DNA from: a virus
Taxonomy: Duplodnaviria; Caudoviricetes
Reading direction: 5' to 3' (one strand)
Virus record (IMG/VR): IMGVR_UViG_3300034095_001474
Coordinates: 96,001 to 160,000 of that record
DNA length: 64,000 nucleotides
Position 1 is the stretch's first letter. Each line of letters starts with the position of its first letter. Below the pieces are notes generated by a model. That model did no database searches. It worked only from the letters and a program-made list of their open reading frames with translations, and was not told the DNA's origin. Of this stretch, positions 623 to 44,441 are shown piece after piece. The translations under genes and the position numbers were made by a program.

Positions 623-623
623 A

Positions 624-962
624 CTATTTTGTATTTATTATTATTGTGGGTTTCCCTAATTTTTCAGCTTTTGTTATGCTATCTTTAGTCCCTTTACTTT
701 CACCATCCCAAAATGCTATGATAGTATCAGCGTTGTTAACGATATAGGTATTTCTCAATACTCCAGCTGCTGCACCATGTTTTTTCCAATCTGGTTTAAA
801 TATAAGTGTTTCGATATTATTCTCTTTGGCATATCTTTCACCCAATGAGTCAGCACCATTCGCACCACCACTAACCAATAATTTTATTTGAAATGGTGAT
901 AATGTGGTTTTAACCAATTCATAGTCATCAAAACCTCTGCTACCAATTACTGCTACTTTCAT
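624..962 (-). CDS. SLOG-superfamily protein (DUF2493/YspA-like)
   Basis: VAVIGSR, VSGGANGAD, AGVLRN, AFWDGESKGT motifs; ends in TAG. Confidence 0.8.
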   Translation of the reverse strand: MKVAVIGSRGFDDYELVKTTLSPFQIKLLVSGGANGADSLGERYAKENNIETLIFKPDWKKHGAAAGVLRNTYIVNNADTIIAFWDGESKGTKDSITKAEKLGKPTIIINTK

Positions 963-1960: not shown

Positions 1961-2037
1961 ATTTATCTTTTTTTATTTATAATACAAATGTATAAAAAAA
2001 TTCCCAATAAAACAAATTATTGGGAATCTTTTTTGAT

Positions 2038-3378
2038 TTATTTTGTTTGAAAACCCATTGTGGATTTCTCTTTCTCCACTTGACTAGAATAGAACCCTTT
2101 GTATGATTCATTAACCAATGAAACAGTGTCGTCAATTGACCAATTTTCATCATCTTCTGACATTTCTTTGATATTGTCAGCCAAGTTTGCAATAAATGCA
2201 CCAGTTATTTTAACTTTCTTGCCATTGATGGTTCCAGTCAATGCATCATAAACTTCTTTAACTTGCCATCTTTCTGGTAAATGGATATTACAAACTCTTT
2301 CAATTTGTTTCTCATCCAAGAATGAATAATCCAATGTGAAGTTAAAACGTCCAGGTCTTTCCGCAGCTTTATCAACCAAACCTTTATCGTTTGTAGATGC
2401 CAACAAACTGATTTTACGTTTCTTAACCCCATCAAAGAATGATAAGAATTGACCCAATAATCTTGTGTAACTTCCGTTATCACGTGAACCTAAGTATAAA
2501 TCGATATCATCCATAATGATAACGGCATTTTCAAAAATCTCACATGCTTCCATGATTGATGTCAAATCATCACTATTACCAAAATCTGGTATAATGAATG
2601 TAACATTAGGAATCAATTTACGTGCAATCTCACGAATGGATTCTGTTTTACCAGTTCCTGGTTCTCCGTTGAATAGGTATCTGGCATTTCCACCTCTACC
2701 AACACGACTAATAAAGTGTTCAATAAATTTTGTTTGAACATCATTCAACACTAATTCATTGCTAGATTCAACAATGTCAATTATTTCAATACCTTTGAAT
2801 CTACCTTCTCTCAATTTAACTTTGATACATTTTCCTCTGTATTCTGAGTTATTGAAAGCTAAAATCTTTATTTTTTTAAACAATTCAACAATTTTGGTGT
2901 ATTCAATACCTTTTTTACAAGTAATATTGATTTGATTAACCAACTCATTTCTTCCGTCAATAAACATTTTAGTTTGAAATACGTAATCGTTATCATCACC
3001 TTCAAATTTGCTGTTGAACCAAAATGAACCAGTAATTTCAAAACTACCACCAAATGTTATTCTACCAATACTATCTGTTATCCCATAAGATGAAACTTTG
3101 ATTTGGTTTTGTTTACCTTTAAAACACTCATATAAATAAGCATTAAAAATTGCGAATTCTATGAAACTTACTTCTTCACAATATGAATTTGTAGGATAAT
3201 CATCATCATCATCTTCATCATCATAACCATATTCATCTTTATCTGATTTTACACCAAAATCTTCATTGACAACATCATCATGACTTGATGATTCCAAATC
3301 ATCAATTTGTATTTTAATACTTGAAAGTTTCAAAAGTTCTCTTTCAAATTTTTTCGGTAATCTGTGTTTTTCGCTCAT
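2038..3378 (-). CDS. AAA+ ATPase with acidic N-terminus
   Basis: Walker A GEPGTGKT, Walker B IIMDDID, sensor STN, RPGRF. Confidence 0.85.
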   Translation of the reverse strand: MSEKHRLPKKFERELLKLSSIKIQIDDLESSSHDDVVNEDFGVKSDKDEYGYDDEDDDDDYPTNSYCEEVSFIEFAIFNAYLYECFKGKQNQIKVSSYGITDSIGRITFGGSFEITGSFWFNSKFEGDDNDYVFQTKMFIDGRNELVNQINITCKKGIEYTKIVELFKKIKILAFNNSEYRGKCIKVKLREGRFKGIEIIDIVESSNELVLNDVQTKFIEHFISRVGRGGNARYLFNGEPGTGKTESIREIARKLIPNVTFIIPDFGNSDDLTSIMEACEIFENAVIIMDDIDLYLGSRDNGSYTRLLGQFLSFFDGVKKRKISLLASTNDKGLVDKAAERPGRFNFTLDYSFLDEKQIERVCNIHLPERWQVKEVYDALTGTINGKKVKITGAFIANLADNIKEMSEDDENWSIDDTVSLVNESYKGFYSSQVEKEKSTMGFQTK

Positions 3379-3399
3379 ATCTTTTTTTTTTATTTTTAA

Positions 3400-3990
3400 T
3401 TAATTATGGTCTACTTGTTCAACTTCTTTTGACATCATATTTTGTTTAACATCAGTATAATGTATTGGACAATAATCCCAACCATTACAACCCATATCCA
3501 AAACTTTACGTTTGTAGTATTCTGGGTTTTGTTTAACTAAACTCTGATGACAATGACCATGTAAATGCCAATCCCCATGATGTGCTTTGTCCCATGAAAG
3601 TATTGGGTAATGCATCATCATAATCCCTTGACGTTTTCTAGGACTATCTTCGTCTGGTACTGAAAGATTGATATAGTCACTTATCGTTTCAAAACGATTT
3701 AGTTTTCTAATATCTTTTTCATCATCATGATTTCCCAATATATAATGTATCTTACCATTTAAACGTTTAACGATTTCTTGTGTTTGTTTTCCACTTCTAT
3801 CGAATGATAAATCACCCAAATAAAAGACAACATCGTTAGCAGCAATATAATGGTTCCAGTTTTCTATCAAGGACTCATTCATTTCTTCCACATCTTTGAA
3901 TGGTCTACCATCATATTTTATCACATTTGCATGGCAAAAATGATAATCAGATGTAAACCAAACATTTTGATGGTCTAATTTTATTCTCAT
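3400..3990 (-). CDS. Calcineurin-like metallophosphoesterase
   Basis: SDYHFCH, LGD, GNHD, HLHGHCH. Confidence 0.88.
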   Translation of the reverse strand: MRIKLDHQNVWFTSDYHFCHANVIKYDGRPFKDVEEMNESLIENWNHYIAANDVVFYLGDLSFDRSGKQTQEIVKRLNGKIHYILGNHDDEKDIRKLNRFETISDYINLSVPDEDSPRKRQGIMMMHYPILSWDKAHHGDWHLHGHCHQSLVKQNPEYYKRKVLDMGCNGWDYCPIHYTDVKQNMMSKEVEQVDHN

Positions 3991-4577
3991 TTGTTTTCTA
4001 ATTTAGCTTTTAATTGTGCCAACACTCCGTTGGTGTCACCCAAAGTGAAAGTAGCGGTTCTATCTGCTTTCTTTTCTATTTTCTTAACTGCTGACTGAAC
4101 CTTGTCGTCAGTAATATTTTTGGCTCTACCCAATAACGATTCACGTCTGATATTACCCAACAACCAATTGATGTGTTTATCACCTTTTAGTGATTTTGTG
4201 ACTACCCAATTGAAAAACTCTTGTGCAACTGGTACTGACATAAAAGTTGTTGTACCTTTTCCAGTAACACCTAATTTCTTCTCACCAATTAGTTTGGCCA
4301 TTGCTGTTGTCTTATCAGCGTTATCATCAAACATTGTCTTCATTGATTTCATCAAATCAGTTTTGAACTGCTCAGTTTGAATTCCTTCTAGAATTTCATT
4401 TACTGATATCAAATCATCATTTGATAAAGCACATTTGAAGTCAGCTTCTGGTTTTTCATTAACCTTCTCAATGTTTGATACTGGCATGTAACTGCGAACC
4501 AAATGATTAAGGAAATTTTTAGCTTTTGGGTTTTCAAGCATTTTATCTAAGCTTGAGTGGATTTCTTCTACTGTCAT
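3987..4577 (-). CDS. Hypothetical protein
   Basis: 196-aa ORF overlapping both neighbours in an operon. Confidence 0.7.
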   Translation of the reverse strand: MTVEEIHSSLDKMLENPKAKNFLNHLVRSYMPVSNIEKVNEKPEADFKCALSNDDLISVNEILEGIQTEQFKTDLMKSMKTMFDDNADKTTAMAKLIGEKKLGVTGKGTTTFMSVPVAQEFFNWVVTKSLKGDKHINWLLGNIRRESLLGRAKNITDDKVQSAVKKIEKKADRTATFTLGDTNGVLAQLKAKLENK

Positions 4578-4951
4578 AATTGTAATAAATAATTAAAAGT
4601 TATTAATAATTGCATATAATGTAAAACTTGGTCTAAACCTATCACAACAAAGAAATCGTGATATCTTTCTTCTTTGTATAGTTTACTAGTCAACCTACTA
4701 GTAAAATAATCTGTTATCCAGTGAGTAACAAAGATAACAATAAATGATAACCAAATACCTAAACTAGAAATATGAATAGACGTAAAAGGAAACACAAAAG
4801 ACCACATAACAATTGTTGTAAATGCATAAACTAAAACATGTAGACTTAGATAGTAATTGCTACTACTTTTTCTTATACTCATATGATGTGTTTGTAATAC
4901 GAAATCAGCAAACCAATGTACAATCAATATAAATAAAACAGACCAAATCAT
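4574..4951 (-). CDS. DUF3307-like membrane protein
   Basis: HWFADFVLQ, H...THWITDY, DQVLH with hydrophobic helices. Confidence 0.75.
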   Translation of the reverse strand: MIWSVLFILIVHWFADFVLQTHHMSIRKSSSNYYLSLHVLVYAFTTIVMWSFVFPFTSIHISSLGIWLSFIVIFVTHWITDYFTSRLTSKLYKEERYHDFFVVIGLDQVLHYMQLLITFNYLLQL

Positions 4952-5352
4952 CTTCCAGAAATTATTTTGTTAATAATAGCTGAAACTGCTTGATTATCAG
5001 CTTTACCCTTATAATTAGAATTGAATTCTTTCATCAATAAAGGCATTGTTGTTAACCCATTGTCATTGTAATAACCTCTGATAATAGTTTCAATCTCATC
5101 ATCACCCATAAGTGTTGGTAAGTATGGTTTGATATACTCTAACTCATTTAATGATTCAGCAGTGTTGGTTTGTTTCAAAGACTTTTCAATTTTCTTTAAG
5201 ATACCCAAAACTGTTTCATCATCTTCTTTCCCAGAACGACCAGCTTCATTTTGAACTTCACCTTTTACTACCCCCAAAAAGTTTTTCTTTTCCATTTCTT
5301 TAGCTTTGAAAGCTATCATGAAATCTACATTGATTTGTTCTTTTAAATTCAT
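4948..5352 (-). CDS. GatB/YqeY domain protein
   Basis: LKEQINVDFMIAFKAKE...ELEYIKPYLP...GKAD pattern. Confidence 0.8.
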   Translation of the reverse strand: MNLKEQINVDFMIAFKAKEMEKKNFLGVVKGEVQNEAGRSGKEDDETVLGILKKIEKSLKQTNTAESLNELEYIKPYLPTLMGDDEIETIIRGYYNDNGLTTMPLLMKEFNSNYKGKADNQAVSAIINKIISGR

Positions 5353-5355
5353 TTC

Positions 5356-5688
5356 CTATTTTTTTAAAACTATATAATAATGATATCCTTTATCACTATC
5401 TGTTGCGTAATACGCATATTTTATCTCACCACTTTTAACTTTTGCCGAGAACTCACTTCTTTCTTCTGGTTTAGCATCCAACGCTATTTTAATATATTTG
5501 TTTTCAGCTCTTTTTACCTTAATTTCAGTTGTGTCGTTAGTGTTTAACTCTATCTTTGTTTCAACAACTTTTTTAACCTCTGTTTCAACATCTGGTTTAA
5601 CAGCTACCATTGCTTTTGTGTCAACTCTTTTCTTAGGTTCAACTTTTGCAACTGGTTTTAGTGTAGCTTTTTTGCGTTCTTCACTCAT
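5356..5688 (-). CDS. Hypothetical K/E/V-rich protein
   Basis: ORF track; TACCTTTG promoter upstream. Confidence 0.6.
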   Translation of the reverse strand: MSEERKKATLKPVAKVEPKKRVDTKAMVAVKPDVETEVKKVVETKIELNTNDTTEIKVKRAENKYIKIALDAKPEERSEFSAKVKSGEIKYAYYATDSDKGYHYYIVLKK

Positions 5689-9632: not shown

Positions 9633-9637
9633 TATTG

Positions 9638-9709
9638 AGCGAGAAATGGGATTCGAACCCACGACCCTCTGGTTGGTAACCAGATGCTCTACCACTGAGC
9701 TATTCTCGC
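9638..9709 (-). tRNA. tRNA-Gly(ACC), A34
   Basis: GCGAGAA/TTCTCGC acceptor, U73, TCTGG-TT ACC AA-CCAGA. Confidence 0.88.
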
Positions 9710-9713
9710 ATTG

Positions 9714-9786
9714 AGCTAAAAATCAGAATCGAACTGATAACCTCTTCATTACTAGTGAAGTGCTCTACCAATTGAGCTATTTCAGC
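9714..9786 (-). tRNA. tRNA-Thr(AGT), A34
   Basis: Cloverleaf, CTTCA-CT AGT AA-TGAAG. Confidence 0.88.
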
Positions 9787-20709: not shown

Positions 20710-20808
20710 TTTTCTTTTAATTTAATTGTTAATAATAAACTTTTAACAAAGGTACAAAACTTATTTCGATAAAACAAATATATTCGTAAATATTTTTAAA
20801 TTTTTTTG

Positions 20809-20879
20809 AAATTCATACTGGGCTCGAACCAGTGTCTGATGGCTTATCGCCCTCCGTGGTGCCACTCCACTAATGAATC
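20809..20879 (-). tRNA. Degenerate tRNA-like gene (Ile GAT-like, aberrant anticodon loop)
   Basis: Good acceptor, D and T arms; loop reads GGC-GATAA-GCC, no U33. Confidence 0.45.
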
Positions 20880-21421: not shown

Positions 21422-21528
21422 TACAGAATAAAGGATTCGAACCTTTGAGTCCCCGTGTATAGGTATCATACATACCACATTCCCAGACTTTATGTATGCT
21501 CAACCTTAAGCCACTCGGTCAATTCCAT
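21422..21528 (-). ncRNA. Class-II tRNA-like RNA with an 18-nt anticodon loop
   Basis: D arm ACC-GAGTGGCTTAA-GGT, CATACAT/ATGTATG stem, T arm AAAGG-TTCGAAT-CCTTT. Confidence 0.45.
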
Positions 21529-21615
21529 ATTTGAGGCTGAGAAGACCTCTGTGTTGTTATAAAAGAAATGTTTAACATTTCTACGTTCCTTTCTCAATGG
21601 AACAACACAATATTT

Positions 21616-21756
21616 GAGCATCAAGATTGACTTTTTTGTGCTAGCCAGTTACACCACACGCCCACACCTCTGTTAGGACATGCTGGGATTCGAACCCAGA
21701 CCCTTTGTTTTACAGACAATTTTGGTTTATTTGCTGAAACAATCTTTTGTATGCTC
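21616..21756 (-). ncRNA. CAGCAA-motif RNA (copy B) enclosing a circularly permuted tRNA (GTA anticodon hairpin)
   Basis: AAGATTG/CAATCTT carrier stem; order anticodon arm, T arm, closed acceptor CATGTCC/GGGCGTG, D arm. Confidence 0.75.
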
Positions 21757-21783
21757 TGTTTAGGTCAGAGGAACCTTCAATGT

Positions 21784-21920
21784 GGGGACAAGATTAACTT
21801 TTTTTCATACGTGCTCTACCACTGAGCTACCGACCTCTGCGAGACCAGGTGGGATTCGAACCCACGACCACGGCATTAACAAGGCTTGAATTTTTGGTTG
21901 CTGAAATAATCTTTTTACCC
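21784..21920 (-). ncRNA. CAGCAA-motif RNA (copy C) enclosing a circularly permuted tRNA (GTT-derived)
   Basis: AAGATTA/TAATCTT carrier stem; T arm GTGGG-TTCGAAT-CCCAC, acceptor CTGGTCT/AGGTCGG, D arm GCTC-AGTGGTA-GAGC. Confidence 0.78.
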
Positions 21921-21965
21921 TTGCAATATTCTACGCAGTTCCCCACGTAGAGTATTGTTTAACAA

Positions 21966-22601
21966 TTACTTGTTAGATGGTGTCACGTTAATTGACCCAA
22001 CTGAACCAGCTTTAGCTCTTTCGATACCAGCAGCTCTTTCAGCATCTAACTGTAAGTACAATTTAGTTACTTGTTCTTCTAAGAACTTGTTTTGAGTAGC
22101 TAATGTACCAATTTTTGCAGCATTTTCAGCAGCGACAGCTTTGTTCTCAGAGTGGATTAATTTAATCTCATTCTCATACTGAGTTTTCAAAGTTGCAACG
22201 ATAGTTGCTACTTCTTTTTTCACTGTAGCTTCAGTGTTAGTTCTTGCAGTGTCTAAATCAGAACGTAAAGTTGTTAATTCAGATGTTGCGATAGACGTGT
22301 AACCGTTAGATGTTAACCACTGAGTTACAACTCTTTCTTGGTTAGCTCTGAATGATAAGTCTAACTCAACGTCAGCTTGTCTACGTTTTTCAGCGTACTC
22401 AACTTCTAATGCAGAAATTGCTTCTTCTTTATTAGCTACTAACATAGTTAATTGCTCTGATTGGTCCGATAAAGTAGAAACTGTTGCAGTTGCTGCTTTT
22501 AATTCGTTTACAGCTTTAGCGATTTGTGCTGCTGCTTGTCCTAAAACTACTTCTGTGTTTGCAGAAGCTTTTCTTGCTGGTGTACTTTTTGGTGTTGCCA
22601 T
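21966..22601 (-). CDS. Ala-rich coiled-coil protein, directly upstream of the permuted tRNA-like RNAs
   Basis: 211-aa ORF with phage-like codon usage. Confidence 0.75.
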   Translation of the reverse strand: MATPKSTPARKASANTEVVLGQAAAQIAKAVNELKAATATVSTLSDQSEQLTMLVANKEEAISALEVEYAEKRRQADVELDLSFRANQERVVTQWLTSNGYTSIATSELTTLRSDLDTARTNTEATVKKEVATIVATLKTQYENEIKLIHSENKAVAAENAAKIGTLATQNKFLEEQVTKLYLQLDAERAAGIERAKAGSVGSINVTPSNK

Positions 22602-22667
22602 ACTTTTTTTTCTTTTTTTACTTTTTTTTTTATTATATTATGATTATTATATCCTTTTTCTATACTA

Positions 22668-22698
22668 CAAATATACGAACATTTTCTTTAAATGTCAA
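22668..22698 (-). promoter_or_regulatory. Bacteroidota-type promoter
   Basis: TTGACA...TATATTTG. Confidence 0.7.
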
Positions 22699-22780
22699 GT
22701 GTTTTTGTAATTATTTTTAAAAAATTTTAGTATTTAACTATTTGATTACCAATACTTTTCAATGAACTTTTTCTATACTA

Positions 22781-22811
22781 CAAATGTACGAACTCTTTTT
22801 GAATAATTCAA
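22781..22811 (-). promoter_or_regulatory. Bacteroidota-type promoter
   Basis: TTGAAT...TACATTTG. Confidence 0.65.
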
Positions 22812-22844
22812 ACTTTTTTACAATTATTTTTATTTTTTTTTTTG

Positions 22845-22938
22845 TGGAGAGATGTGGATTCGAACCACACTTTGGACGGATATTAAGTTATATCTTTCAA
22901 TAACACCACCCTTACTTTACCAATCAAGCTATCTCTCC
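22845..22938 (-). ncRNA. tRNA-like RNA with an extended anticodon arm (GAA-like loop)
   Basis: Perfect GGAGAGA/TCTCTCC acceptor, D and T arms; GGGTGG/CCGTCC plus GTTAT/ATAAC stems. Confidence 0.55.
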
Positions 22939-23211
22939 AAATTACCCTCTGAGATTACGAGGACTAGATTTTAACGGTTTTTTTCATCTTGAACAAAACT
23001 ATCTCTCAATTACGCCTATAGTTTTTAACACTACTCTTTGATTGAGCCTTTACATTAGTGTCTTACCACATAAAAATAAGTCAACCATTACGATGGGGGT
23101 AAGATGGTCTTCTTCCCGATTCCAACGAGTCCCCACTCTGGCCGTAGGACTATCTGCCAAGACGTTGTTTAAGTATCGTCATCATAACTTATGAGTACCC
23201 CTTACTCATTG

Positions 23212-23336
23212 TCGGAAGGGAAGGAATCGAACCTCCAAATAGCAGTCCCTAATAGTAGTTTTATGCTGAACATAATCTTTAAACAGATTAACTTTTTTTT
23301 ACATACTGCCGCCTTTACCAATTTGGCCACCTTCCG
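23212..23336 (-). ncRNA. tRNA with the CAGCA module inserted in a 58-nt anticodon loop (copy D)
   Basis: CGGAAGG/CCTTCCG acceptor, GCC/GGC D stem, GCAGT/ACTGC anticodon stem, insert AAAAAAAAG-TTAATCT-GTTTA-AAGATTA-TGTT-CAGCA. Confidence 0.78.
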
Positions 23337-23350
23337 AATTTAACTTTAAG

Positions 23351-23423
23351 TGGTGAGAGGTGGATTTGAACCACCGACACATGAGTTTTCAGCCCATTGC
23401 TCTACCAACTGAGCTATCTCACC
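23351..23423 (-). tRNA. tRNA-Phe(GAA)
   Basis: ATGGG-CT GAA AA-CTCAT. Confidence 0.9.
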
Positions 23424-23428
23424 ATAAT

Positions 23429-23610
23429 AACCGAAGATAGATTTATGGAATCTTGCTGCAACCATAAACATCTCTTATAGTCTTTATACTATCGTCATAA
23501 ACATTTATGAGCTTCACACACCATTAGAGAGCCGAGTATTTCTACTTATCCTTAGTGCGACACCCTCCGACACGTCTCTCCACGCTTCCTATCCTACGTC
23601 TTTTTCGGTT
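23429..23610 (-). ncRNA. CAGCAA-motif RNA (copy E)
   Basis: AACCGAA/TTCGGTT outer stem; TTTATGG-TTGCAGCAAGATT-CCATAAA hairpin. Confidence 0.4.
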
Positions 23611-23651
23611 ACTTTATTTTTAATACTTCAATGAACTTAATTTTAACACTG

Positions 23652-23682
23652 CAAATGTACAAACAATATTTGATATATGCAA
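23652..23682 (-). promoter_or_regulatory. Bacteroidota-type promoter followed by boxA-like AGTTCATTGAA
   Basis: TTGCAT...TACATTTG. Confidence 0.65.
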
Positions 23683-23888
23683 ATGTTTTTTATTTTTTTT
23701 TTAATCTAAATAGATGTCGTGTTGAATTACAGCGTAAGCATCCAGCTTAGCACCCAATTCAAAATAGTAACCGAACATGTCGTCACTAATTGCATTCTCT
23801 AACATATAAATTATATAGTTAGCCATCATCTGCATTGCTTTTTGTAGTATCTTTCTTTTCATATTACAAATGTACAACAATTTTTTGA

Positions 23889-28939: not shown

Positions 28940-29263
28940 ATGGGATATGTTTATTTATTTTTAGAGGTTGATAAAGAAGGTAATGAAGCTTATAAGATTG
29001 GTATTACTAAAAATGAGCCAATCAAACGAGTGAAACAATTGCAAACTGGTAATTCACGCAAATTGACTTACCTTAAATCTTATAAATCAGAAAACTACTT
29101 AAAAGTAGAACGTTTTTTACATAGAAAATATATGATAAAAACTGAAGCTGAAAATGAATGGAGAACTCTTACTGATGAACAAGTTATTTCATTCATTAAA
29201 GATTGTGAGGAAGCTGATGAAAATATCAACTTCCTTTTAAAAAACAATCATTTTTATAAGTGA
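28940..29263 (+). CDS. GIY-YIG/T5orf172-like nuclease
   Basis: GYVY...YKIGITK...RVKQLQTGN...ENEW. Confidence 0.8.
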   Translation: MGYVYLFLEVDKEGNEAYKIGITKNEPIKRVKQLQTGNSRKLTYLKSYKSENYLKVERFLHRKYMIKTEAENEWRTLTDEQVISFIKDCEEADENINFLLKNNHFYK

Positions 29264-30429
29264 TAGAATTCTCTTCTAATCTTAATCAACAACTTGTTAA
29301 CCAATTCTGGGTCAATACCTTTAGGTAAATCAGATTCATCAAAAATCCTATCCATCTCTTTGATTTCAGCTTCTGCTGTATCAATAAGTGAATCTAAATC
29401 AATTTCGCCTCTACGAATAGACAATAGATATTCTCTATCTGGTCGTCTTACAATGATTCCTTCACCACGTCCAATTTCTTGTGACATTCTAATAAGTCTC
29501 ATACAATGCATCATATTCTTACCATCAATTTGTTGTCCATGTTTAACCGTATCAACGTATCTTGCAGTGTTTCTATTCTCAACCCATTCCATATATTCTT
29601 TATAGTCCTTGCAGTGAGCTGTATACCCATCTTTGTTGAACATGATGTTACAGATAGGTGTTTCACCCTTTGGAATACTTGATAAACGTAATTGATTGGA
29701 TTCAGCAGCATTATCAGAACCGCCAACCTTAGCAAGAGCCTTATAACCAAATCCCATCGCTTTACCTTGTGATTTTAACTCATTCTTCATAAATTCTCTT
29801 TGTTCTTCACTAAAAAACTCACCAAAACAAGCAGCCGCAATATTATCGTAAAAAACAGCATATAAATCTTTTGCGTGTGGAACATTGGTAATACCTAAGA
29901 ATTTTTCTTCATAACCCAGACCTTCACACCATTTTTTCCATGGAACTGATTGTTCACCTTGAATAACATAACAGAAATCCAACACATCTTTACGAGTAAC
30001 TGAACCTTGTTCTATGTTTTGTTTCTTGTTAAGACCTCTAGCTTTAGATATTTGTTGTACAGCATACCCACCAAATGAGTTCTTACACCCTTTGGTGATA
30101 AAATCAGCCTTGTGGTCCAATACATATTGAAACAATGGATGTTTTGTAATGATACAATCTTCTGGTGTGTTTAATAACTCCAATACTGTCGGATTTGAGC
30201 TTCCCATTAGTTCTAAGAACCTTTTAAGTTCCCAACCAGTATAATCCTTGTTTACGTTTAATTGTTCAACGTAACCAGTCCCTAAGATGTAATCTTGTGG
30301 TAAGATATATACAAACTTCTTATCAACATCAGATGTTGGAGTTTGTGTTCCATATGCTTGTGACCCAATGATACATTCAAATAGGATAAGCCCGTTTTGT
30401 TCTAAGTATTCGTGTGTAATCTTTTCCAT
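29254..30429 (-). CDS. RlaP-like (Pol-beta) nucleotidyltransferase
   Basis: IGSQAYGT.TPTSDVD, NPTVLELL, DGKNMMHCMRL, LLSIRRG. Confidence 0.8.
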   Translation of the reverse strand: MEKITHEYLEQNGLILFECIIGSQAYGTQTPTSDVDKKFVYILPQDYILGTGYVEQLNVNKDYTGWELKRFLELMGSSNPTVLELLNTPEDCIITKHPLFQYVLDHKADFITKGCKNSFGGYAVQQISKARGLNKKQNIEQGSVTRKDVLDFCYVIQGEQSVPWKKWCEGLGYEEKFLGITNVPHAKDLYAVFYDNIAAACFGEFFSEEQREFMKNELKSQGKAMGFGYKALAKVGGSDNAAESNQLRLSSIPKGETPICNIMFNKDGYTAHCKDYKEYMEWVENRNTARYVDTVKHGQQIDGKNMMHCMRLIRMSQEIGRGEGIIVRRPDREYLLSIRRGEIDLDSLIDTAEAEIKEMDRIFDESDLPKGIDPELVNKLLIKIRREFYHL

Positions 30430-32522: not shown

Positions 32523-33236
32523 TTAAGCTAATCTAAGTGGTCTTAAATAATCTCTAAGAAATGCGTTGACTGGACCACCAATCTTTTCTTCCCAATGTTT
32601 ATAGTTAGAAGCATTCTTTTCTTCCAATTGAGACAAAGCTTTCTCAGATGGTTTATGTCTACTATATGGTATTGTTTCTGGAACAAAGTCTGGATACAAC
32701 GTTCTATTGAATACCCTTTCATCAACCAAGAACACAAAAGCTGTCAATTGGTCACCCAAATCTGGTTCATGGAACCCTTGCAGATATACACCAACTTCAT
32801 GCATCGTATTCATATGAGTATTCAATGTGCCTAATCTTTCTGGGTTGTTGTTGGTAGTACCACCATTAAGAATGATAAAAGTTTTATCTTTGTCAGCCCA
32901 TTTTTTATAGATTGCGTTATGTGGATTAATATCTTCAACAGTTCTACCATAATCAACAACAGCATGTCCAAATTGGATACCTTGTTGAATTGGAGACATA
33001 TTGTAAGGTACAAGACCATACATTCTATATTCCAAATACATTTCAGTTTTACGTGGCATTGAATTAGTTTTTACACGACATAACTCAATACGTCTGTAGA
33101 ATTCTTGTACATCAATTTTCTCTTCATAATAAGAGTCAGTATAAAACGCCCAATCAGTTTCCCATGATGACATATCGATTATTCTCATGTTGGCATCTAA
33201 ACACCAATCATATCCAGTTTTAAGTATTTTTTCCAT
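32523..33236 (-). CDS. PTH2-like peptidyl-tRNA hydrolase domain protein
   Basis: QQGIQFGHA, TFIILNGG, FHEPDLGDQLTA. Confidence 0.6.
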   Translation of the reverse strand: MEKILKTGYDWCLDANMRIIDMSSWETDWAFYTDSYYEEKIDVQEFYRRIELCRVKTNSMPRKTEMYLEYRMYGLVPYNMSPIQQGIQFGHAVVDYGRTVEDINPHNAIYKKWADKDKTFIILNGGTTNNNPERLGTLNTHMNTMHEVGVYLQGFHEPDLGDQLTAFVFLVDERVFNRTLYPDFVPETIPYSRHKPSEKALSQLEEKNASNYKHWEEKIGGPVNAFLRDYLRPLRLA

Positions 33237-34543
33237 TAGTTTCCTATTTCAATTAAGTGTGATATAGTACATTGTTCTGCTCTATATATAATATATTCGT
33301 TATTTCTTAAATCAGCACCACCTTTAGCAAACACACTGTTATAACCTTCATTGTCCATTACTTTTTGTGATAATTTATAACAGCTAGAATCGTGATGCAG
33401 TATTTCTTTTTCTTTCCCTAAATGAACATCATACAATGCCAAATAAGCTTTATTGTCACCACCATTAGCCCAATAAGAACCTCTCAATGATGAGTAACCA
33501 ATTGATTTCTGTGCTTTATCAGCAAAATAGATACCATCACCAAACATTGAACCAGTATGTACTGCACCAGAAGGTCTGATAAGCAATCCACTTTGCATAA
33601 TGTTAAACCAGTTCTCATTTCTGGAACCATGCCAGTAAAGTCTTTTCTTTTTAACGTCAGCTTTCTCCAAGTTTTTATCAAATTTAACTTGTGTTTTGTT
33701 ATTTCTAACTTTGAACACTTTTTTGATTTGATTAACATTTGAACCCATCAATTTTTTAATAAGTGCTAACATTTCAGTATCGTTTTCAACTTCAACTGTT
33801 AATCCCATTTGGTCAAGGATAGTTACATCTTCAACAACTTCTTCTTCACCTTTGGCTTCAGCTTCAGCAGCTTTTTTAGCAGCATCTCTTTGTTGTTTAA
33901 TCAACTCAACTTGTCCAGCCATCGTATCCAATGCTGATTGTTCATTATCAATCAACCTTTGAGCACTAGTCAAACTACCATCATCCTCAATACCACTAAA
34001 CAAGTAGTCTTTAACATTATCCATTCTTCTTGGGATAATAGTATATAATTTCAATAACATATCATTGATATGTTTGATATCAACACCTATTTGTATCAAC
34101 CCACTAATATTGGTAATAACCTCTTGTGCAGCTCTTACTTGTTGTTCAGATACAGCTTCTTGAGTTACCTTATAGTTTCTTTGGATTGATTTGTTAGCAA
34201 ATGACATTAAATCATCAATCAATTTCTTAACAATATCATCTTTTATGTTCTCAACCTTGTTATCCAATGGTTTTGATTCATCAATAACTGGTTCAGCTAG
34301 TAAATCAGTAACATCAGTATAACCTTTTGTTTTGGATAATTTCTGTTTCAACACACTATCCCACTTGCTGCTAGGTTTATATTCTTCAACCAAAGACTTA
34401 CCAACACGTCCATATTCACATTTGATACGTCCATCTGTCAATTCCTCCATAATATAAACCTTGTTACTGTTTCCAGTACTGCCATTATCCACTGATACGT
34501 GGATAAGTTTGGCATATCTTAAACCATTTTCCTTTGTTATCAT
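33236..34543 (-). CDS. Poly(ADP-ribose) polymerase-like protein (WGR + regulatory + catalytic domains)
   Basis: NKVYIM...YGRVG; YTIIPR; WHGSR...GSMFGDGIYFAD...KSIGY...NEYIIY (H-Y-E triad). Confidence 0.9.
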   Translation of the reverse strand: MITKENGLRYAKLIHVSVDNGSTGNSNKVYIMEELTDGRIKCEYGRVGKSLVEEYKPSSKWDSVLKQKLSKTKGYTDVTDLLAEPVIDESKPLDNKVENIKDDIVKKLIDDLMSFANKSIQRNYKVTQEAVSEQQVRAAQEVITNISGLIQIGVDIKHINDMLLKLYTIIPRRMDNVKDYLFSGIEDDGSLTSAQRLIDNEQSALDTMAGQVELIKQQRDAAKKAAEAEAKGEEEVVEDVTILDQMGLTVEVENDTEMLALIKKLMGSNVNQIKKVFKVRNNKTQVKFDKNLEKADVKKKRLYWHGSRNENWFNIMQSGLLIRPSGAVHTGSMFGDGIYFADKAQKSIGYSSLRGSYWANGGDNKAYLALYDVHLGKEKEILHHDSSCYKLSQKVMDNEGYNSVFAKGGADLRNNEYIIYRAEQCTISHLIEIGN

Positions 34544-35089: not shown

Positions 35090-35273
35090 CTTTGAATAGA
35101 TTTGGGTTATTCAACACAAAATTAAAGAAAACTGTTTGTAAACGTGTATCTACCATGAAACCATTCACGTATACAACACCATTTAGTATCTCAATTTCTT
35201 GACCAGCTGGTAATGACATATCTTTGCCAACTTCAGCAGCTTTTAACAGCTTATAAACTCCATTTTTTAACAT
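35070..35273 (-). CDS. Hypothetical protein
   Basis: ORF track. Confidence 0.55.
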   Translation of the reverse strand: MLKNGVYKLLKAAEVGKDMSLPAGQEIEILNGVVYVNGFMVDTRLQTVFFNFVLNNPNLFKDDTRAW

Positions 35274-36331
35274 ACTATAGTCAATTTAAAGAACATCTCT
35301 CTTACTTTTGTAGAGATGTATTTATTTACTTCTTTTGGTTCTACTTGGTTCTCAACCATAGTATCCATTTCTTCTTTGATAACGTCATTTACAACCCATC
35401 TAATAACATCACCCATCTTTTTAACATCGATTGGTTCTTGGTTAGGAAAAACGTTTTCCAATGCTTGATTAAAACGACTTTCTGTTACAGCGTAATCAAC
35501 AAACTTTTGAATACCATTTAATTTTTCAACATTAACATTCGCAAGTGTTTTAACTTTAGAACTAGAATGTTTTTCACCTTTCACCTTGAACCTATGTGTG
35601 TTACCTTTGAAATCAGCAGTCCAAACAATACCTTCACCAATTCCAGAAAAACCAAATGCTTTAGCAACTGGACATTCTTCTTCAACTTTGATAGTCAAAT
35701 TAGATAAGTCATTTTGTACCAATTGTGGCATATTGAAATCAATATCGATTGAATACGTTGGGTAGTCTTCGATGTTGTAAATATTATCCTCTGGACTAGA
35801 CAAGTAATGAGAAGGAATCCAATATGCTGGTTTAGCTTTCAATTCTTCCTCACTAGATGTATGTGGTGTTACCTTAACACCGAAGATAAAGAAAGATTTA
35901 GGTAAATTGGTAATACCAACACCTTTTTGAATGTTTCCACCACACCATTCACCATAAATAGTAACAGTATTATGTCTTACATCAAATAAATTTAATGAAT
36001 CGATTTGATTTGCAAATTTTCTAAATGCATGTTTCTTTGATTCAACAAAAAATGCAAATCCAGCGTTGTCTTTCTCTACTGTAATAATGTTCTCACGTGA
36101 TTGAGCCCAAAATTCGCTAGAATTTTCATCATAACCATAATCAAAAGATACACCAGCGTTTGTACCATGTAACTTTACTGTACCTTTGAACGTGATAACT
36201 GGTTTTGGTAAAGTTGGGTCATAAATTGCATCACCATTCTCATCCAAACCAACAAAATTGAAATGTCTATTGACATTAGATACAACTGTTCTAAATTGTT
36301 CAATAGACGGAAATTTAATCATTTTTTTCAT
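35267..36331 (-). CDS. RNA ligase, Rnl2-like
   Basis: KLHGTN (I), YGEWCG (III), GEGIV (IV), FKVK (V). Confidence 0.85.
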   Translation of the reverse strand: MKKMIKFPSIEQFRTVVSNVNRHFNFVGLDENGDAIYDPTLPKPVITFKGTVKLHGTNAGVSFDYGYDENSSEFWAQSRENIITVEKDNAGFAFFVESKKHAFRKFANQIDSLNLFDVRHNTVTIYGEWCGGNIQKGVGITNLPKSFFIFGVKVTPHTSSEEELKAKPAYWIPSHYLSSPEDNIYNIEDYPTYSIDIDFNMPQLVQNDLSNLTIKVEEECPVAKAFGFSGIGEGIVWTADFKGNTHRFKVKGEKHSSSKVKTLANVNVEKLNGIQKFVDYAVTESRFNQALENVFPNQEPIDVKKMGDVIRWVVNDVIKEEMDTMVENQVEPKEVNKYISTKVREMFFKLTIVC

Positions 36332-39631: not shown

Positions 39632-40756
39632 TTACAACATTTTATATAATAATTTATCATCGTATTCAAACATAAAGTCTTCAACGCTATTTATTTTGTA
39701 TTGAGCCAATCCGAAATACAATCCAGTGAATTGTTTTACTTCATATTTATCACATACTTCAAATACAGCAGCTGCATACTTTTTTTGTTCTTCTTTTGTG
39801 ATGTTTTTTGGTCTAAGCAATTGTAACTCAACCCAAATAACGTTCAACTTACCAACCAACTCATCGTATCCTTCTTTAAGACGATATAGTTCTTCTGTTC
39901 TTTCTGGGAAAGTAGCAGCAAACTCTTCTATCTCGTTGGTTTTTACGATTGTTAATATGTTGTGTTCAGCAGTTTTACCTTTTAAGTGGTGAACTGCAAC
40001 ATAAGCTGGGTTTTTCACCTTCACACGATTGTCGTTACCATCACGTACTACATATCCTTCTTCAGACCATGGCATGTTTTCAAATGTTTTCAACAAGTGA
40101 CCAACATTTGATGCGTTGATATCAAAAGACTTTACCAATGGTATACCTATTGACACAGCAGCCATTTCTAAGTCTTTTCCAGAAAACTCAACTAGTGTTT
40201 CTCTGTCTCTCACAGTCAATAGTGTTGCTGATGATTCACCATGTGGTTTTACCACTATGTTGTATGGTGTAGTCAACTCAAATACGTATATAAGGTCTTT
40301 GTTCAGTAAACATTCATTGAATGTGTATTTGTTATTTACAGTTTCCCAAAACAAGTCATTAAATGTTGTTCCGTTTTTGTTGTTCACTTCACCTTCACCT
40401 TCAGCAGTACCAGTAGTAGCTGCAAACCATTTTTCTTCATACCAATCCCAATAGACTTGTATCATAGTACCATCCAATTTTTCAAGTACATGTGCAGTAT
40501 TCCAATCTATCTTTGCAGCGTTTCCTTCTTCAGAATTGAAGAATTTACGGAATGCCAACGACATTACGTTCCAAGTATTTTTTTCAAGGATAATTCCACG
40601 ACAATCTTGCATTTCTGGCAAGGCCATAAGTGTTGGTGACACCAATTGGTCATACTTAAAAAGTATTTTACCATCATACTCTCTAGTTTTTAAACTAAAA
40701 GCTTTGATTGTTTTTTCTAATCCGTGTTTTATTAAGTAATTTTGTATCGCTAACAT
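39632..40756 (-). CDS. RNA ligase, T4 Rnl1-like
   Basis: RKFFN, EKLDGT, FEL...NIVV, EGYVV, RVKVKNPAY. Confidence 0.88.
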   Translation of the reverse strand: MLAIQNYLIKHGLEKTIKAFSLKTREYDGKILFKYDQLVSPTLMALPEMQDCRGIILEKNTWNVMSLAFRKFFNSEEGNAAKIDWNTAHVLEKLDGTMIQVYWDWYEEKWFAATTGTAEGEGEVNNKNGTTFNDLFWETVNNKYTFNECLLNKDLIYVFELTTPYNIVVKPHGESSATLLTVRDRETLVEFSGKDLEMAAVSIGIPLVKSFDINASNVGHLLKTFENMPWSEEGYVVRDGNDNRVKVKNPAYVAVHHLKGKTAEHNILTIVKTNEIEEFAATFPERTEELYRLKEGYDELVGKLNVIWVELQLLRPKNITKEEQKKYAAAVFEVCDKYEVKQFTGLYFGLAQYKINSVEDFMFEYDDKLLYKML

Positions 40757-40816
40757 AATATAATTTTTTAATGTTAGACAAAAGTACAAAATAAAAATGA
40801 AATAACAAAATAAAAC

Positions 40817-42334: not shown

Positions 42335-42553
42335 TTATTCACTATCATATTTACTTATATTTAGATTTCCATCAATAAAAACTTCACTTAGATTCAATAT
42401 TTCTTTTGCGTGAAATACTTCAACACCTTCCAATGGAAATGCTTCGCCAGTATAATAAAAGAATCTTATCTTATACAATGGACCTTCAACCCAAAGTATT
42501 TCACTTTGACAAAGACCATAGTGTTTTAATTGTAATTTTACTTCTTGTTTCAT
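42335..42553 (-). CDS. Hypothetical protein
   Basis: ORF track. Confidence 0.5.
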   Translation of the reverse strand: MKQEVKLQLKHYGLCQSEILWVEGPLYKIRFFYYTGEAFPLEGVEVFHAKEILNLSEVFIDGNLNISKYDSE

Positions 42554-43455
42554 TATTTATTAGTATTTGTAATCTCAGTAACAACACCTTTTATCATAAA
42601 TGATTTAATGTCTTGCCACTTTGTTATTTCATTGCTCATTACTGGCTTACCACCTTCTGGGTTTATCGCAATGGTTATGTGTGGTATTTCATTTTTGGAA
42701 TTAAACCCTTCAACTTGTACTGCCAAAGCCATATCAGATAACCCTAATTTGGTCACAGTAAGTACCACTTCTTTACCCAATTCAGATTTATCTTTCAACT
42801 CACCCAAATTTATTGTCATATGATGTGCAAATACTTTCCAATCTTGTGGTATCCATATACCCAACTTATCCATCAACGTACCTTTGGATTGTCCATCCAA
42901 CAATACACAAGAGTACAACACATCAGATTTTTTGTACATATCTTTAGATGCAAGTATTTTCTTTATGGTTAATGGACCAACAGATTTATGTGATTGTATC
43001 ATTTTTTGTATTTCAACCAATGGAACACCATGTGTATTTGATTCAGCTAATTGTTCAGCAGACAAACCTCTAGTACCCACATCAAATATTTGTATGTTGT
43101 TATCATCTAACCCCATTTCCAATGCTGCAACAACGTATGCTTTAGCACCATTAGCCTTTATGTTGGTGTTATCTATAACAACTGGCGTAATACCATCTTT
43201 AATAGATTTGATTGCGTTAGATAAGTTCTTAGAGTGCATTCTATTGAATGCTTTAGAATCGCCAGAAGTTTTTATCTTAGCAAAGAAACCTCTGTAATCA
43301 CCAGTCGCTGTTATAAGGTCATCAGTTGAATGGATAATACCGTCCAGCACAATAGACTTAGCCATTGTAGACTTTCCAGCACCTGGAATACCACGCATCA
43401 CAAACAATTCTTGTGTTGGTCTAGTTACATCGATATTTAATATATTCTTTTTCAT
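42553..43455 (-). CDS. Polynucleotide-kinase-like P-loop fused to a 2H cyclic phosphodiesterase (RNA end healing)
   Basis: RGIPGAGKST, IDNTN, THGVP; HHMTI and PHITI. Confidence 0.82.
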   Translation of the reverse strand: MKKNILNIDVTRPTQELFVMRGIPGAGKSTMAKSIVLDGIIHSTDDLITATGDYRGFFAKIKTSGDSKAFNRMHSKNLSNAIKSIKDGITPVVIDNTNIKANGAKAYVVAALEMGLDDNNIQIFDVGTRGLSAEQLAESNTHGVPLVEIQKMIQSHKSVGPLTIKKILASKDMYKKSDVLYSCVLLDGQSKGTLMDKLGIWIPQDWKVFAHHMTINLGELKDKSELGKEVVLTVTKLGLSDMALAVQVEGFNSKNEIPHITIAINPEGGKPVMSNEITKWQDIKSFMIKGVVTEITNTNK

Positions 43456-43492: not shown

Positions 43493-44425
43493 TTATTTAA
43501 TTATTTTAATAATACTAGGGTTATATATTACATAGTGTGTTGTGTCTCTATATTCATCACCAACCATAATACCATCAATACCTAACTTAACGCAATTCCT
43601 AACAAATCCAACACCATCATACCTATAAAAATCAATCCAAACTTGCAATAAAACATCTTTGTCATTATCATTATATTGAAAAGCAGATTGTAAAAATTTA
43701 ACTAACCCTTTAGGGTATGGGTAATCATAATTAACTACATCATCTTTCCAATCCTCAGCCATCATAACCAACTTTTTTACAATTGCTGGTGTAATGGTTA
43801 ATTTACCAACTTTATCACCATACATTATCCTAGGAGTTAACTCAACATTAAAAACTCTACCTTTTTCTCCAGCATATCCGTATGCTTCTTGTTCTGATGA
43901 TGTAAAATAAACACCAGGACCATTTTGGTCAGTTGCTTCTTTACCACCTACAAACTCATCGCTAAAACCAGAAAAATCATTAGGACTACCGTGGTATGCT
44001 ATTAAATTTAAATTTTTGTATTTGTCTTCACCTAATAAAGATTCTTTAAGCATCTTCTTAATTATTTTTTTTGTTTCGTTTTCTCCCATCATAAATTTTG
44101 AATTAGGGAATAGTACTATTTCACCAAACTTACCATCTGGATATTTTGTTATAATAGCATCATATCCCTTGCTCATTAGTATGTTAGTTAGTTTTTCACC
44201 TTTAGCTTTATATTGCTTAGCTAAATCTCTTTTATATTCTATTTGAGTATCATCAGTGATATCTATATATAAAGGGTTATTTATTATAGCTTTACCTTCA
44301 ATCCAACCGTCTGGTACAAAATTAGTATTTTGCCTAACATATGTACCTTTTGGTTCAACATCTTGACCAAACCTAGAACCCAATTTAGGTGCTGGTTCTG
44401 TATTTTTAATTATATTTAATTCCAT
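43493..44425 (-). CDS. ADP-ribosyltransferase-like (polyvalent-protein ART type) protein
   Basis: AYHGS...GPGVYFTS...AYGY; internal IKKMLKES. Confidence 0.55.
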   Translation of the reverse strand: MELNIIKNTEPAPKLGSRFGQDVEPKGTYVRQNTNFVPDGWIEGKAIINNPLYIDITDDTQIEYKRDLAKQYKAKGEKLTNILMSKGYDAIITKYPDGKFGEIVLFPNSKFMMGENETKKIIKKMLKESLLGEDKYKNLNLIAYHGSPNDFSGFSDEFVGGKEATDQNGPGVYFTSSEQEAYGYAGEKGRVFNVELTPRIMYGDKVGKLTITPAIVKKLVMMAEDWKDDVVNYDYPYPKGLVKFLQSAFQYNDNDKDVLLQVWIDFYRYDGVGFVRNCVKLGIDGIMVGDEYRDTTHYVIYNPSIIKIIK

Positions 44426-44441
44426 ACTAATAAATATTGTT

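Follow-up and report, generated by a model that had tools for sequence, protein, structure and literature searches.

Bacterial Y RNAs of the YrlA type mimic tRNA, and the YrlA of M. smegmatis is cut by RNase P and receives CCA (PMC4201824). Phage homologues of Ro60 and tRNA-mimicking Y RNAs have also been published (PMC4201824, PMC12135203, PMC7824862), and the bacterial rsr-yrlA-rtcB operons react to damaged tRNAs (PMC7790460). In phage Bas63 the Ro60-like protein gp130, encoded upstream of tRNA genes, counters the ppl defence, and it has been guessed that some of the annotated tRNAs are Y RNAs (10.1101/2024.10.10.617714). The purpose of the tRNA-like half of bacterial Y RNAs has nevertheless been a standing question since 2014. 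The subject of this report is a tRNA-shaped element at positions 23212-23336 of a 64,000-nt stretch of DNA from a lake-water phage (IMG/VR record IMGVR_UViG_3300034095_001474, positions 96,001 to 160,000; the whole stretch is referred to below as the window), in which a short hairpin module, here called the handle, lies within the anticodon loop. Our favoured reading, to which we would attach a probability of roughly 0.55, is that the element is a tRNA-Pro-derived, tRNA-shaped Y-like RNA bound by a phage Ro60-like protein. It belongs to a family whose natural variants have complete tRNA bodies, open or sealed acceptor ends and specific anticodon motifs or none, all with one recognisable handle and all found alongside one Ro60-like protein, and such variants could answer the question of what the tRNA-like half is for.

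The element is encoded on the minus strand and reads CGGAAGG-UG-GCCA-AAUUGGUAA-AGGC-G-GCAGU-[58 nt]-ACUGC-UAUUU-GGAGG-UUCGAUU-CCUUC-CCUUCCG-A; CCA is not encoded at its 3' end, where CAA comes next. Its parts are as follows.

23212-23336, minus strand: the whole tRNA-shaped RNA, 125 nt with nt 1 at 23336, laid out as acceptor, D arm, anticodon stem with 58-nt loop, 5-nt variable loop, T arm and discriminator A
23330-23336, minus strand: acceptor 5' strand CGGAAGG, 7/7 pairs with CCUUCCG at 23213-23219
23311-23327, minus strand: D arm GCCA-AAUUGGUAA-AGGC, almost unchanged across the Pro group
23305-23309, minus strand: anticodon stem 5' strand GCAGU, five perfect pairs with ACUGC at 23242-23246
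23292-23304, minus strand: A-rich 5' linker AUGUAAAAAAAAG, part of a module common to sister RNA B (GUAUGAAAAAAAG)
23273-23291, minus strand: handle hairpin UUAAUCU-GUUUA-AAGAUUA, with the 6 bp UAAUCU/AGAUUA
23264-23272, minus strand: single-stranded signature UGUU-CAGCA (UNCAGCA(A)), after the 3' strand of the handle
23247-23263, minus strand: 3' linker and anticodon-like remnant UAAAACUACUA-UUAGGG, reading UU-AGG-G(A)
23220-23236, minus strand: T arm GGAGG-UUCGAUU-CCUUC, from the Rfam alignment
23212, minus strand: discriminator A73, which with C1-G72 is as in two canonical phage tRNA-Pro genes

The 58-nt loop itself is AUGUAAAAAAAAG-UUAAUCU-GUUUA-AAGAUUA-UGUU-CAGCA-UAAAACUACUAUUAGGG. A preliminary description of this locus had seen a normal-order tRNA (C1-G72, A73) with a perfect GCAGU/ACUGC stem around 58 nt, and this is confirmed by the sequence and by the Rfam tRNA model (RF00005), which gives 47.5 bits over a gathering score of 29 (E 4.9e-7 for the whole window) in an alignment that spans model positions 1-71 and places a 53-nt insertion in the anticodon loop. 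When introns are allowed ARAGORN reports the element as tRNA-Pro(agg) i(33,53), and without that option it is not called. The tRNA features present are a 7-bp acceptor stem, a D arm, a T arm with a UUCGA loop and a discriminator base; those lacking are a 7-nt anticodon loop with U33, a purine at 37 and a fixed stem register, for the loop is 58 nt and one of 7 nt can be obtained in this copy only by notional removal of 51-53 nt together with a shifted stem register. The 3' end of a tRNA-Phe lies 13 nt upstream and there is no terminator-like site in 22700-23760, indicating that tRNA and tRNA-like genes form a polycistronic run here, with the element as one of its units.

The insert might be taken for an intron. 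An endonuclease would then excise a 51-nt module between nt 31/32 and the U-U-AGG-G-A loop and the halves would be joined, a kinase-2H phosphodiesterase and a ligase of the Rnl1 or Rnl2 type healing and sealing them into a decoding tRNA-Pro(AGG); the product would have 74-77 nt, with ...GGCAGU joined to UUAGGGACUGC... or a register-shifted equivalent. Such protein-dependent splicing is conceivable but in our judgement unlikely. To judge from the structure of tRNA on the ribosome, an unremoved insert at the anticodon loop could hardly be accepted, which speaks for it; there is, on the other side, no candidate for the endonuclease, none of the EndA/Sen type having been found among the 40 window open reading frames (ORFs) scanned with Pfam. 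Rfam intron, ribozyme and riboswitch families gave no match at E up to 1 in 22600-23700. A group I intron was considered and rejected, as the insert is 51-58 nt and the catalytic core (P1-P9) about 200 nt or more, with no Rfam match. Inspection of the fold and of the alignment likewise led to rejection of a bulge-helix-bulge (BHB) intron: the geometry of two 3-nt bulges and a 4-bp helix is missing and the junctions sit in long variable single-stranded linkers.

The module in the anticodon loop is also found in two neighbouring RNAs of the window.

21787-21894, minus strand: sister RNA B, a permuted tRNA-like RNA with an Asn-type loop UUGUUAA, both ends of which form the handle
21620-21760 (approximate), minus strand: sister RNA C, a permuted tRNA-like RNA with a Tyr-type loop CUGUAAA, a short variable loop and the same handle

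B and C start with AAAGAUUAUUUCAGCA... and finish with ...GCACGUAUGAAAAAAAGUUAAUCUUG; against Rfam YrlA, B gives 41.4 bits, which is under the gathering score of 69 (E 3e-7 locally). The strands GCA(C)GUAUG--AAAAAAAGUUAAUCU and AAAGAUUAU-UUCAGCA of the insert align to B with 1-3 indels, and AAAAAAGTYAATCT occurs exactly three times in the window, in B, in C and in the element (0.42 expected; three were reached in 1/100 shuffles). The insert is thus what B and C have as their terminal stem, here capped with a loop of 5 nt, in an RNA whose acceptor end is open and not sealed. The idea put forward earlier that the same module as in B and C is present in circularly permuted form is borne out by this alignment and by the restriction of AAAAAAGTYAATCT to the three RNAs, while the duplication of AT at the insert flanks, also remarked upon, holds for this copy and is not kept in relatives.

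Close homologues were identified by pattern scans in IMG/VR (L001, L197, L203, L131 (=L194), L186 and L225) and in metagenomes of the Joint Genome Institute (L261, L263, L265 and L267). Eleven homologues, on viral and metagenome contigs, retain all five helices with compensatory changes, and the insert is present in every one of them. In seven aligned sequences 95.7% of cells were paired, compared with 33-51% when the partners were slid by 1-3 columns, and both sides had changed in 13 of the 27 pairs, with at least one such pair in each of the five helices. The changes fall in five of the seven acceptor pairs, three of the five T-arm pairs and two pairs of the anticodon stem, and in the handle helix U-A/C-G is exchanged for C-G/U-A in L197 and L203. 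The D arm and the handle are almost invariant and the acceptor and T stems divergent. One further locus (L266; Ga0315284_10318100, 52-190) is a chimera, in which the 5' half and handle are of the Pro group and the 3' half has no partner for the anticodon and acceptor strands; either recombination or decay would account for it.

It could be argued that recombination placed a copy of the handle module in the anticodon loop of a tRNA-Pro gene and so disabled it, the element being a functionless relic in decay. The loop is one nucleotide short relative to that of L265, the halves of the L266 chimera do not match, short repeats are seen at several insertion points and canonical tRNA-Pro genes are present in the window, all of which would suit this explanation. 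However, decay is difficult to reconcile with 11 homologues on different contigs keeping five helices by compensatory change, with a handle and D arm that are near-invariant while the acceptor and T stems diverge, or with the recurrence, in unrelated phages and Lachnospiraceae elements alike, of normal-order handle tRNAs that have several identities, and we consider it very improbable.

A search for relatives lacking the insert was made with the D arm and no copy of this tRNA without it was found, the other tRNAs with this D arm being unrelated class II tRNAs with a CAA anticodon. A scan with a 16-mer (AAGATTNTNTTCAGCA) gave 119 loci that were chance matches apart from L001, and BLAST of 22800-23640 against 50,697 isolated phage records gave a match only to the neighbouring tRNA-Phe. 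When four metatranscriptome contig sets were compared with 21500-23700 no joint skipping the insert was found, the cover being too thin for this to count as absence of splicing, and the matching pieces were nearly all T or D arms of other organisms' tRNAs. One 245-nt contig covers nt 1-91 unbroken, insert included, which is weak evidence because DNA may occur in such libraries. Splicing is proposed for a locus at which no spliced read, no joint and no insert-free gene copy has come to light.

To judge from C1-G72 and A73, which are shared with the two canonical tRNA-Pro(UGG) genes of the window (10437 and 11255), the body of the element is of tRNA-Pro descent; the sequence contains the bacterial tRNA-Pro identity set (G72, A73, G35, G36). 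In 11/11 homologues U/A-NGG-R(A) stands just ahead of the 3' stem strand, as UGG, AGG or CGG, at a distance from the stem of 1, 2 or 3 nt depending on the homologue. In L265, the closest of them, the same insert is accompanied by a canonical UUAGGGA loop in register, and ARAGORN must shift the stem because the window copy is one A short relative to L265. The flanks of the insert had been described as Tyr-like on the 5' side and Leu-like on the 3' side, and neither label can be kept: AUGUA belongs to the module (as in GUAUGAAAAAAAG of B) and relatives have AAGUA, AAUGC, AAGC or AUGGA there, while the body is class I with Pro identity, the relatives read NGG and the loop of L265 is UUAGGGA. Proponents of an intron could point to NGG in all 11 homologues with only position 34 varying, and to the canonical loop that directly follows the insert in L265. 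The spacing between NGG and the stem nevertheless varies by +/-1 nt, which is not tolerable in a 7-nt loop, the window copy needs a shifted register, and G35U distinguishes L197 from L203. The variable spacing and G35U indicate that the motif is retained, yet outside the exact register of a 7-nt loop. As a separate observation, A is found at position 34 in several phage tRNAs of the window (9637-9786, 20808-20879 and 23212-23336), with Gly ACC, Thr AGU, Tyr-like AUA and Pro-like AGG readings, and relatives have His-like AUG and Asn-like AUU loops. An A34 is unusual for bacteria, and these tRNAs may point to an A34 deaminase used by the phage.

The element is a member of a much larger family. 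A scan with the pattern AAGATT-N3-5-CAGCA-N20-50-GGTTCGANTCC produced 95 matches at 77 viral loci, for a chance expectation that was roughly estimated at about 2-3. The family handle consists of a helix, then UNCAGCA(A), with A-rich linkers at both sides; the single-stranded signature is kept in lake phages, Lachnospiraceae elements and Felix O1 alike, including RNAs whose helix has another sequence. There are two topologies, about 23 unique matches being tRNAs in normal order in which the handle is closed, and about 49 unique ones being permuted like B and C. In most normal-order forms the acceptor has 7/7 pairs, and the 5' and 3' linkers have lengths of 6-13 and 8-14 nt respectively. The handle comes after nt 31 in the Pro group, L134 and L159, between 29 and 30 in the Asp GUC, Glu UUC/CUC and AUG types and between 28 and 29 in Lys UUU and Arg CCU, and in L129, L144 and L122 there is a GNRA hairpin or nothing instead of an anticodon arm. 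In the jumbo phage contigs of IMG/VR that contain L129/L138/L180 and L144 the hairpins are short and GNRA-capped (AUUC-GAAA-GAAU and GUC-GAAA-GAC), one in a normal-order and one in a permuted RNA.

Anticodons vary on near-identical bodies. C-type bodies with a short variable loop have a GUA, GGA or AGA anticodon; bacterial Tyr, Ser and Leu tRNAs require a long variable arm, so bodies of this kind are unlikely to be ordinary decoders. A scan of bacterial genomes gave 38 matches, about 25 being expected by chance on a rough estimate, and only those with a recognisable handle context were used. Contigs of Lachnospiraceae metagenome-assembled genomes (MAGs) were found to contain normal-order forms with one body and GUC, UAA, UUA, CAA or GUU loops, and their tandem neighbours have another helix and the same GCAGCAAC motif. 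Such handle tRNAs, compact and with almost the same body, stand in arrays linked to a DUF7788 gene in L272, L275, L278, L287, L291, L299 and L301, where UUA would be ochre-reading, and the arrays give the impression of a fixed scaffold on which the anticodon is varied. There is also redundancy, as two canonical tRNA-Pro genes are present in the window and three canonical tRNA-Asp genes stand beside the handle-Asp in the complete 353-kb genome G017; other ARAGORN 'intron' calls in G017 are heterogeneous, some being mis-parsed tandem tRNAs, and were left out.

These features of the family favour a stable Y-like ribonucleoprotein. In the permuted forms the handle is made by the termini and is not an intron in the usual sense, and the variable junctions, linkers and NGG spacing, the members without an arm, the use of one body with many anticodons, the redundancy with canonical tRNAs and the want of insert-free alleles all point the same way. 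The occurrence of intron-like and permuted forms with one junction motif at the same place in the tRNA is reminiscent of the BHB genes of Archaea and red algae, and on the intron explanation the cuts made in the element would also mature B and C, by way of an intermediate that is circular or in two pieces, in the manner of the split or permuted tRNAs of archaea and algae. A broader version would have a phage tRNA splicing and rearrangement system in which the handle is held by the Ro60-like protein and a nuclease and ligases turn intron-like and permuted genes into working tRNAs, possibly under attack by a host anticodon nuclease only. This system, which would be a bacterial-virus counterpart of the archaeal and algal BHB arrangement with another recognition module, we think a little less likely still. 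Against processing of the intron type it has to be said that bulge-helix-bulge structures are absent, that the distances of the junctions from the handle (6-13 and 8-14 nt) and their positions in the tRNA differ, that some members have no anticodon arm at all, and that short-variable-loop bodies with Tyr, Ser or Leu anticodons would not be served by bacterial synthetases. Of the two alternatives offered in the preliminary description, the Y-like tRNA mimic fits the two topologies across many phages and the co-occurrence of the handle with a Ro60-fold protein set out below. The protein-dependent intron fares less well, neither spliced RNA nor an insert-free DNA copy having been found, and the insertion points, linkers and motif spacing are too variable for a precise splice.

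The Ro60-like protein is encoded at the end of the window.

63263-64000, minus strand: C-terminal part of the Ro60-like protein (DUF7788, vWA-like; Pfam DUF7788 E 4.5e-45), in a gene that runs off the window end
63045-63215, minus strand: handle RNA directly 3' of the Ro60-like gene, with an AAGAUGC/GUAUCUU helix followed by AUUCUGCAACCAAAAAAC, as read from the sequence

Full-length relatives have about 490 aa and consist of DUF2828 and DUF7788, with a weak vWA match. An AlphaFold2 model of one of them, based on a 34-sequence alignment, had a predicted local distance difference test (pLDDT) value of 83, and its best matches by fold in PDB were Ro60 structures, with E 4e-10 to 2e-6 and a template modelling (TM) score of about 0.6 for most. 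Among them are Xenopus Ro60 (2i91, 1yvr), Deinococcus Rsr (2nvo), the Ro60 of Thermus phage phiLo (9kop, 9l5y) and human complexes of Ro60, La and misfolded pre-5S rRNA (9nfa, 9nf8). The DUF2828-DUF7788 protein is thus predicted to have a Ro60-like fold. Sequence searches of the DUF7788 fragment and of the full-length relative against PDB sequences gave nothing usable, Ro60 being seen by fold search only.

Among contigs of at least 100 kb DUF7788 was present in 22/25 that bear handles and in 3/21 controls (Fisher p = 6e-7), a co-occurrence that is genomic only and that was measured with a small control set chosen without phylogeny; where handle-bearing contigs were at least 90% complete the figure was 14/14. 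Each of the three DUF7788-positive controls has three AAGATT..CAGCA motifs, in one case at a distance of 1.1 kb from the gene, and in two DUF7788-negative controls that were checked these motifs were not above background. In the Lachnospiraceae MAGs with handle RNAs the protein is found in 5/5, on the same contig in at least three. Because the handle accompanies a phage Ro60-like protein, the element is most likely a Y RNA of a new, open-ended form and not an ordinary intron-bearing tRNA. In a 208-kb phage contig (G009, locus L240) genes for a Thg1-like 3'-5' polymerase, RtcB, a metallophosphoesterase and the DUF2828-DUF7788 protein stand in an operon-like row at 150-5395, with a handle RNA about 110 nt upstream of the last of these.

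The DUF2828-DUF7788 protein occurs in 710 cultured phage records, including that of Felix O1. There, ORF42, which is annotated as 'RNA-binding protein', matches DUF7788 with E 2e-45 and lies directly upstream of a tRNA cluster, and within 1.6 kb downstream of it four CAGCAA-handle RNAs are found in the gaps between annotated tRNAs, one of which is permuted and tRNA-like, with its acceptor sealed. Rfam YrlA gave no match to the Felix O1 handle RNAs. These RNAs are unannotated (L310, that is NC_005282.1 21500-30500, locus 2330-3300) and have a terminal helix of the AGACC(A/G)UU...AACGGUCU type followed by UA-CAGCAA. Beside the DUF2828 gene of Vibrio phage ValKK3 no obvious gap for an RNA was seen. 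Felix O1 would offer a cultivable model of the handle RNA family and, with 710 cultured phage records and the counter-defence phenotype reported for gp130 of the Felix O1-like phage Bas63, the idea can be tested at the bench.

The window also encodes a set of RNA repair proteins.

29254-30429: RlaP nucleotidyltransferase
35267-36331: Rnl2-like ligase
39632-40789: Rnl1-like ligase
42553-43455: kinase and 2H cyclic phosphodiesterase, with a Trl1-like healing layout
52437-53552: CCA-adding enzyme

A PARP-like gene (33236-34543) and an ART-PolyVal gene (43493-44479) are located among them. On the minus strand there are, in addition, an amber-suppressor-type tRNA at 55024-55095 (anticodon CUA, labelled Pyl by ARAGORN) and the phage tmRNA at 57925-58303, with the tag peptide EATFVSNGELAVA.

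In handle-bearing contigs Rnl1 was present in 11/25 and RtcB in 4/25, and in the controls both were at 0/21; Rnl2-type ligases are found in some of the remaining handle-bearing contigs. The enrichment of ligases in handle-bearing phages, and the presence of Rnl1-like and Rnl2-like ligases, kinase and phosphodiesterase, RlaP and CCA enzyme all within one window, would suit removal of the insert by splicing, and 'enigmatic' tRNA introns have been reported in Lak megaphages (10.1101/356790). In members whose insert lies within the 5' strand of the stem, its removal would furthermore interrupt one strand of a duplex, and nicked duplexes are substrates of Rnl2-type ligases. Set against this is the handle-bearing contig G008, which is 92% complete and has no Rnl1, RtcB or Rnl2. 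The repair genes fit an RNA-repair setting such as that of the bacterial rsr-yrlA-rtcB operons, and splicing is equally accommodated. Were an intron the correct explanation, bacterial viruses would for the first time be seen to have a tRNA splicing system that depends on protein.

A third possibility is that of a conditional reserve in which an inactive pro-tRNA is stored on the Ro60-like protein and converted into a working tRNA, or used as a substrate for repair, only when tRNA has been depleted by host anticodon nucleases. This has the merit of uniting the protein association, the retained anticodon motifs and the ligase enrichment, and it finds parallels in the response of the rsr-yrlA-rtcB operons to damaged tRNAs (PMC7790460) and in the position of RtcB beside the Ro60-like gene in G009 and G018. 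It is generally known which tRNAs anticodon nucleases attack, and the Asn, Tyr, Asp, Lys, Arg and Glu types of the family overlap these targets. But the objections from spacing and junctions apply as they do to an intron, there is no evidence of regulated processing and members without anticodon arms cannot serve, and we hold such a reserve to be improbable.

As a Y-like RNA, the element might work in the following way. It would be transcribed on the minus strand within the run of tRNA and tRNA-like genes, and the RNA would fold as a cloverleaf with an open 7-bp acceptor end and a 58-nt anticodon loop holding the handle. The handle would be the docking site of the Ro60-like ring protein (DUF2828-DUF7788), in which case the insert is a functional module kept in the RNA and not an intron needing removal. 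Processing of the tRNA half probably involves cleavage by RNase P and CCA addition by the phage CCA enzyme, and the Pro-type acceptor end together with a single-stranded U-NGG-R-A would be offered to a partner that binds tRNA, for which a synthetase, an enzyme of tRNA modification or repair and a host anticodon nuclease come into question. That partner might be tethered to the ring protein, as partners of Y RNAs are tethered to Ro60, or diverted.

Several observations weigh against this interpretation. The anticodon motifs and discriminator bases are kept better than shape alone needs, which would rather be expected of an intron: many members have perfect 7-nt anticodon loops and matching discriminator bases, and the NGG of the Pro group varies at the wobble position only, as real decoders would. 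The GNCGAA motif of known Y RNAs is absent from the handle, and Rfam YrlA, searched with E values up to 1, does not match 23212-23336. In this window 40 kb separate the Ro60-like gene from the element, and the genomic nature of the association and its controls has been noted above. Finally, Rnl1 or RtcB was present in 15/25 handle-bearing contigs and 0/21 controls, and a full heal-and-seal kit in the window would suit splicing. Gene finders label handle RNAs as intron tRNAs or pseudo-tRNAs, and phage tRNA counts and arguments from codon usage may in consequence be inflated.

The surroundings of the element have some further peculiarities on the minus strand. Two G+C-richer and apparently structured non-coding stretches (23429-23610 and 22950-23205) flank the pair formed by tRNA-Phe and the handle-Pro; both have the motif CUCAUAA(A)UGUU(U)AUGACGAUA, the upstream one also has UGGUUGCAGCAAG, and neither has a match to an Rfam family. 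A TTCGTACATTTGTAG / TTTGTACATTTGCAG element recurs before blocks of RNA genes, at 22660-22800, 23640-23690 and 23860-23880. It is similar to the Bacteroidota-type -7 box TAnnTTTG and is probably a phage or host promoter of these RNA arrays. A gene resembling tRNA-Asn(GUU) lies at 22844-22938, where ARAGORN -i calls it and the Rfam tRNA model gives 36.9 bits. Its insert of 21 nt, at the canonical position 37/38, contains a small hairpin GAUAU-AACUUA-AUAUC and lacks the CAGCAA motif.

A search of the literature found no description of the UNCAGCAA handle, of a Y-type module embedded and closed within a normal-order tRNA gene, or of the pairing of intron-like and permuted forms in phages. Among described systems, tmRNA in its one-piece and permuted two-piece forms resembles the family in having a tRNA-like acceptor and T domain, a large functional insert that replaces the anticodon arm and genes in both normal and permuted order. 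Unlike tmRNA the element is without open reading frame, pseudoknots and SmpB logic, its D arm and anticodon stem are retained, and the window has a separate tmRNA at 57925-58303. The BHB introns and the split or permuted tRNAs of Nanoarchaeum, Thermofilum and Cyanidioschyzon also combine intron-like and permuted forms with one junction motif at the same place in the tRNA, but the element lacks a bulge-helix-bulge, the position and distances of its junctions are variable, it belongs to the world of bacterial hosts and no splicing endonuclease gene was seen (40 window ORFs, Pfam). The introns of the Lak megaphages (10.1101/356790) are, from their description, comparable in coming from large Bacteroidota phages with many tRNAs, some with short conserved inserts; insert-free alleles exist there, whereas none was found for the element, and no link to a Ro60-like protein is made in that paper.

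With the system described here Bas63 gp130 and Felix O1 ORF42 share the setting among tRNA genes and probably the protein family, DUF7788 being present in the Felix O1 protein and gp130 being described as Ro60-like in the PhageMaP preprint (10.1101/2024.10.10.617714), of which RNA sequences or a motif do not form part. The RNAs seen in Felix O1 differ in being terminal-stem forms, with no normal-order tRNA containing an embedded handle. The closest likeness of all is to YrlA and Ro60/Rsr (PMC4201824; RF02553; phiLo, PMC12135203). In YrlA the 5' and 3' ends form the Ro60-binding stem and the acceptor-like stem is sealed, whereas in the element the acceptor is open and the helix is closed by GUUUA inside the anticodon loop; the motif there is GNCGAA(N)G, compared with UGUUCAGCA in the element and a family consensus of UNC(A/U)GCAA. 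The element retains an anticodon-like NGG, and other family members a whole anticodon arm, and the handle protein is of the DUF2828-DUF7788 branch, which is undetected by Pfam TROVE. What the two have in common is a tRNA-like domain with a helix and a conserved single-stranded motif, an open acceptor end, which the YrlA of M. smegmatis gains too, with CCA added, and genomes that encode a Ro60-fold protein, often adjacent to the RNA gene and near RtcB. For the handle RNAs the last of these is seen in the 22/25 against 3/21 contigs, in the predicted fold and in the gene fragment at 63263-64000 of the window itself.

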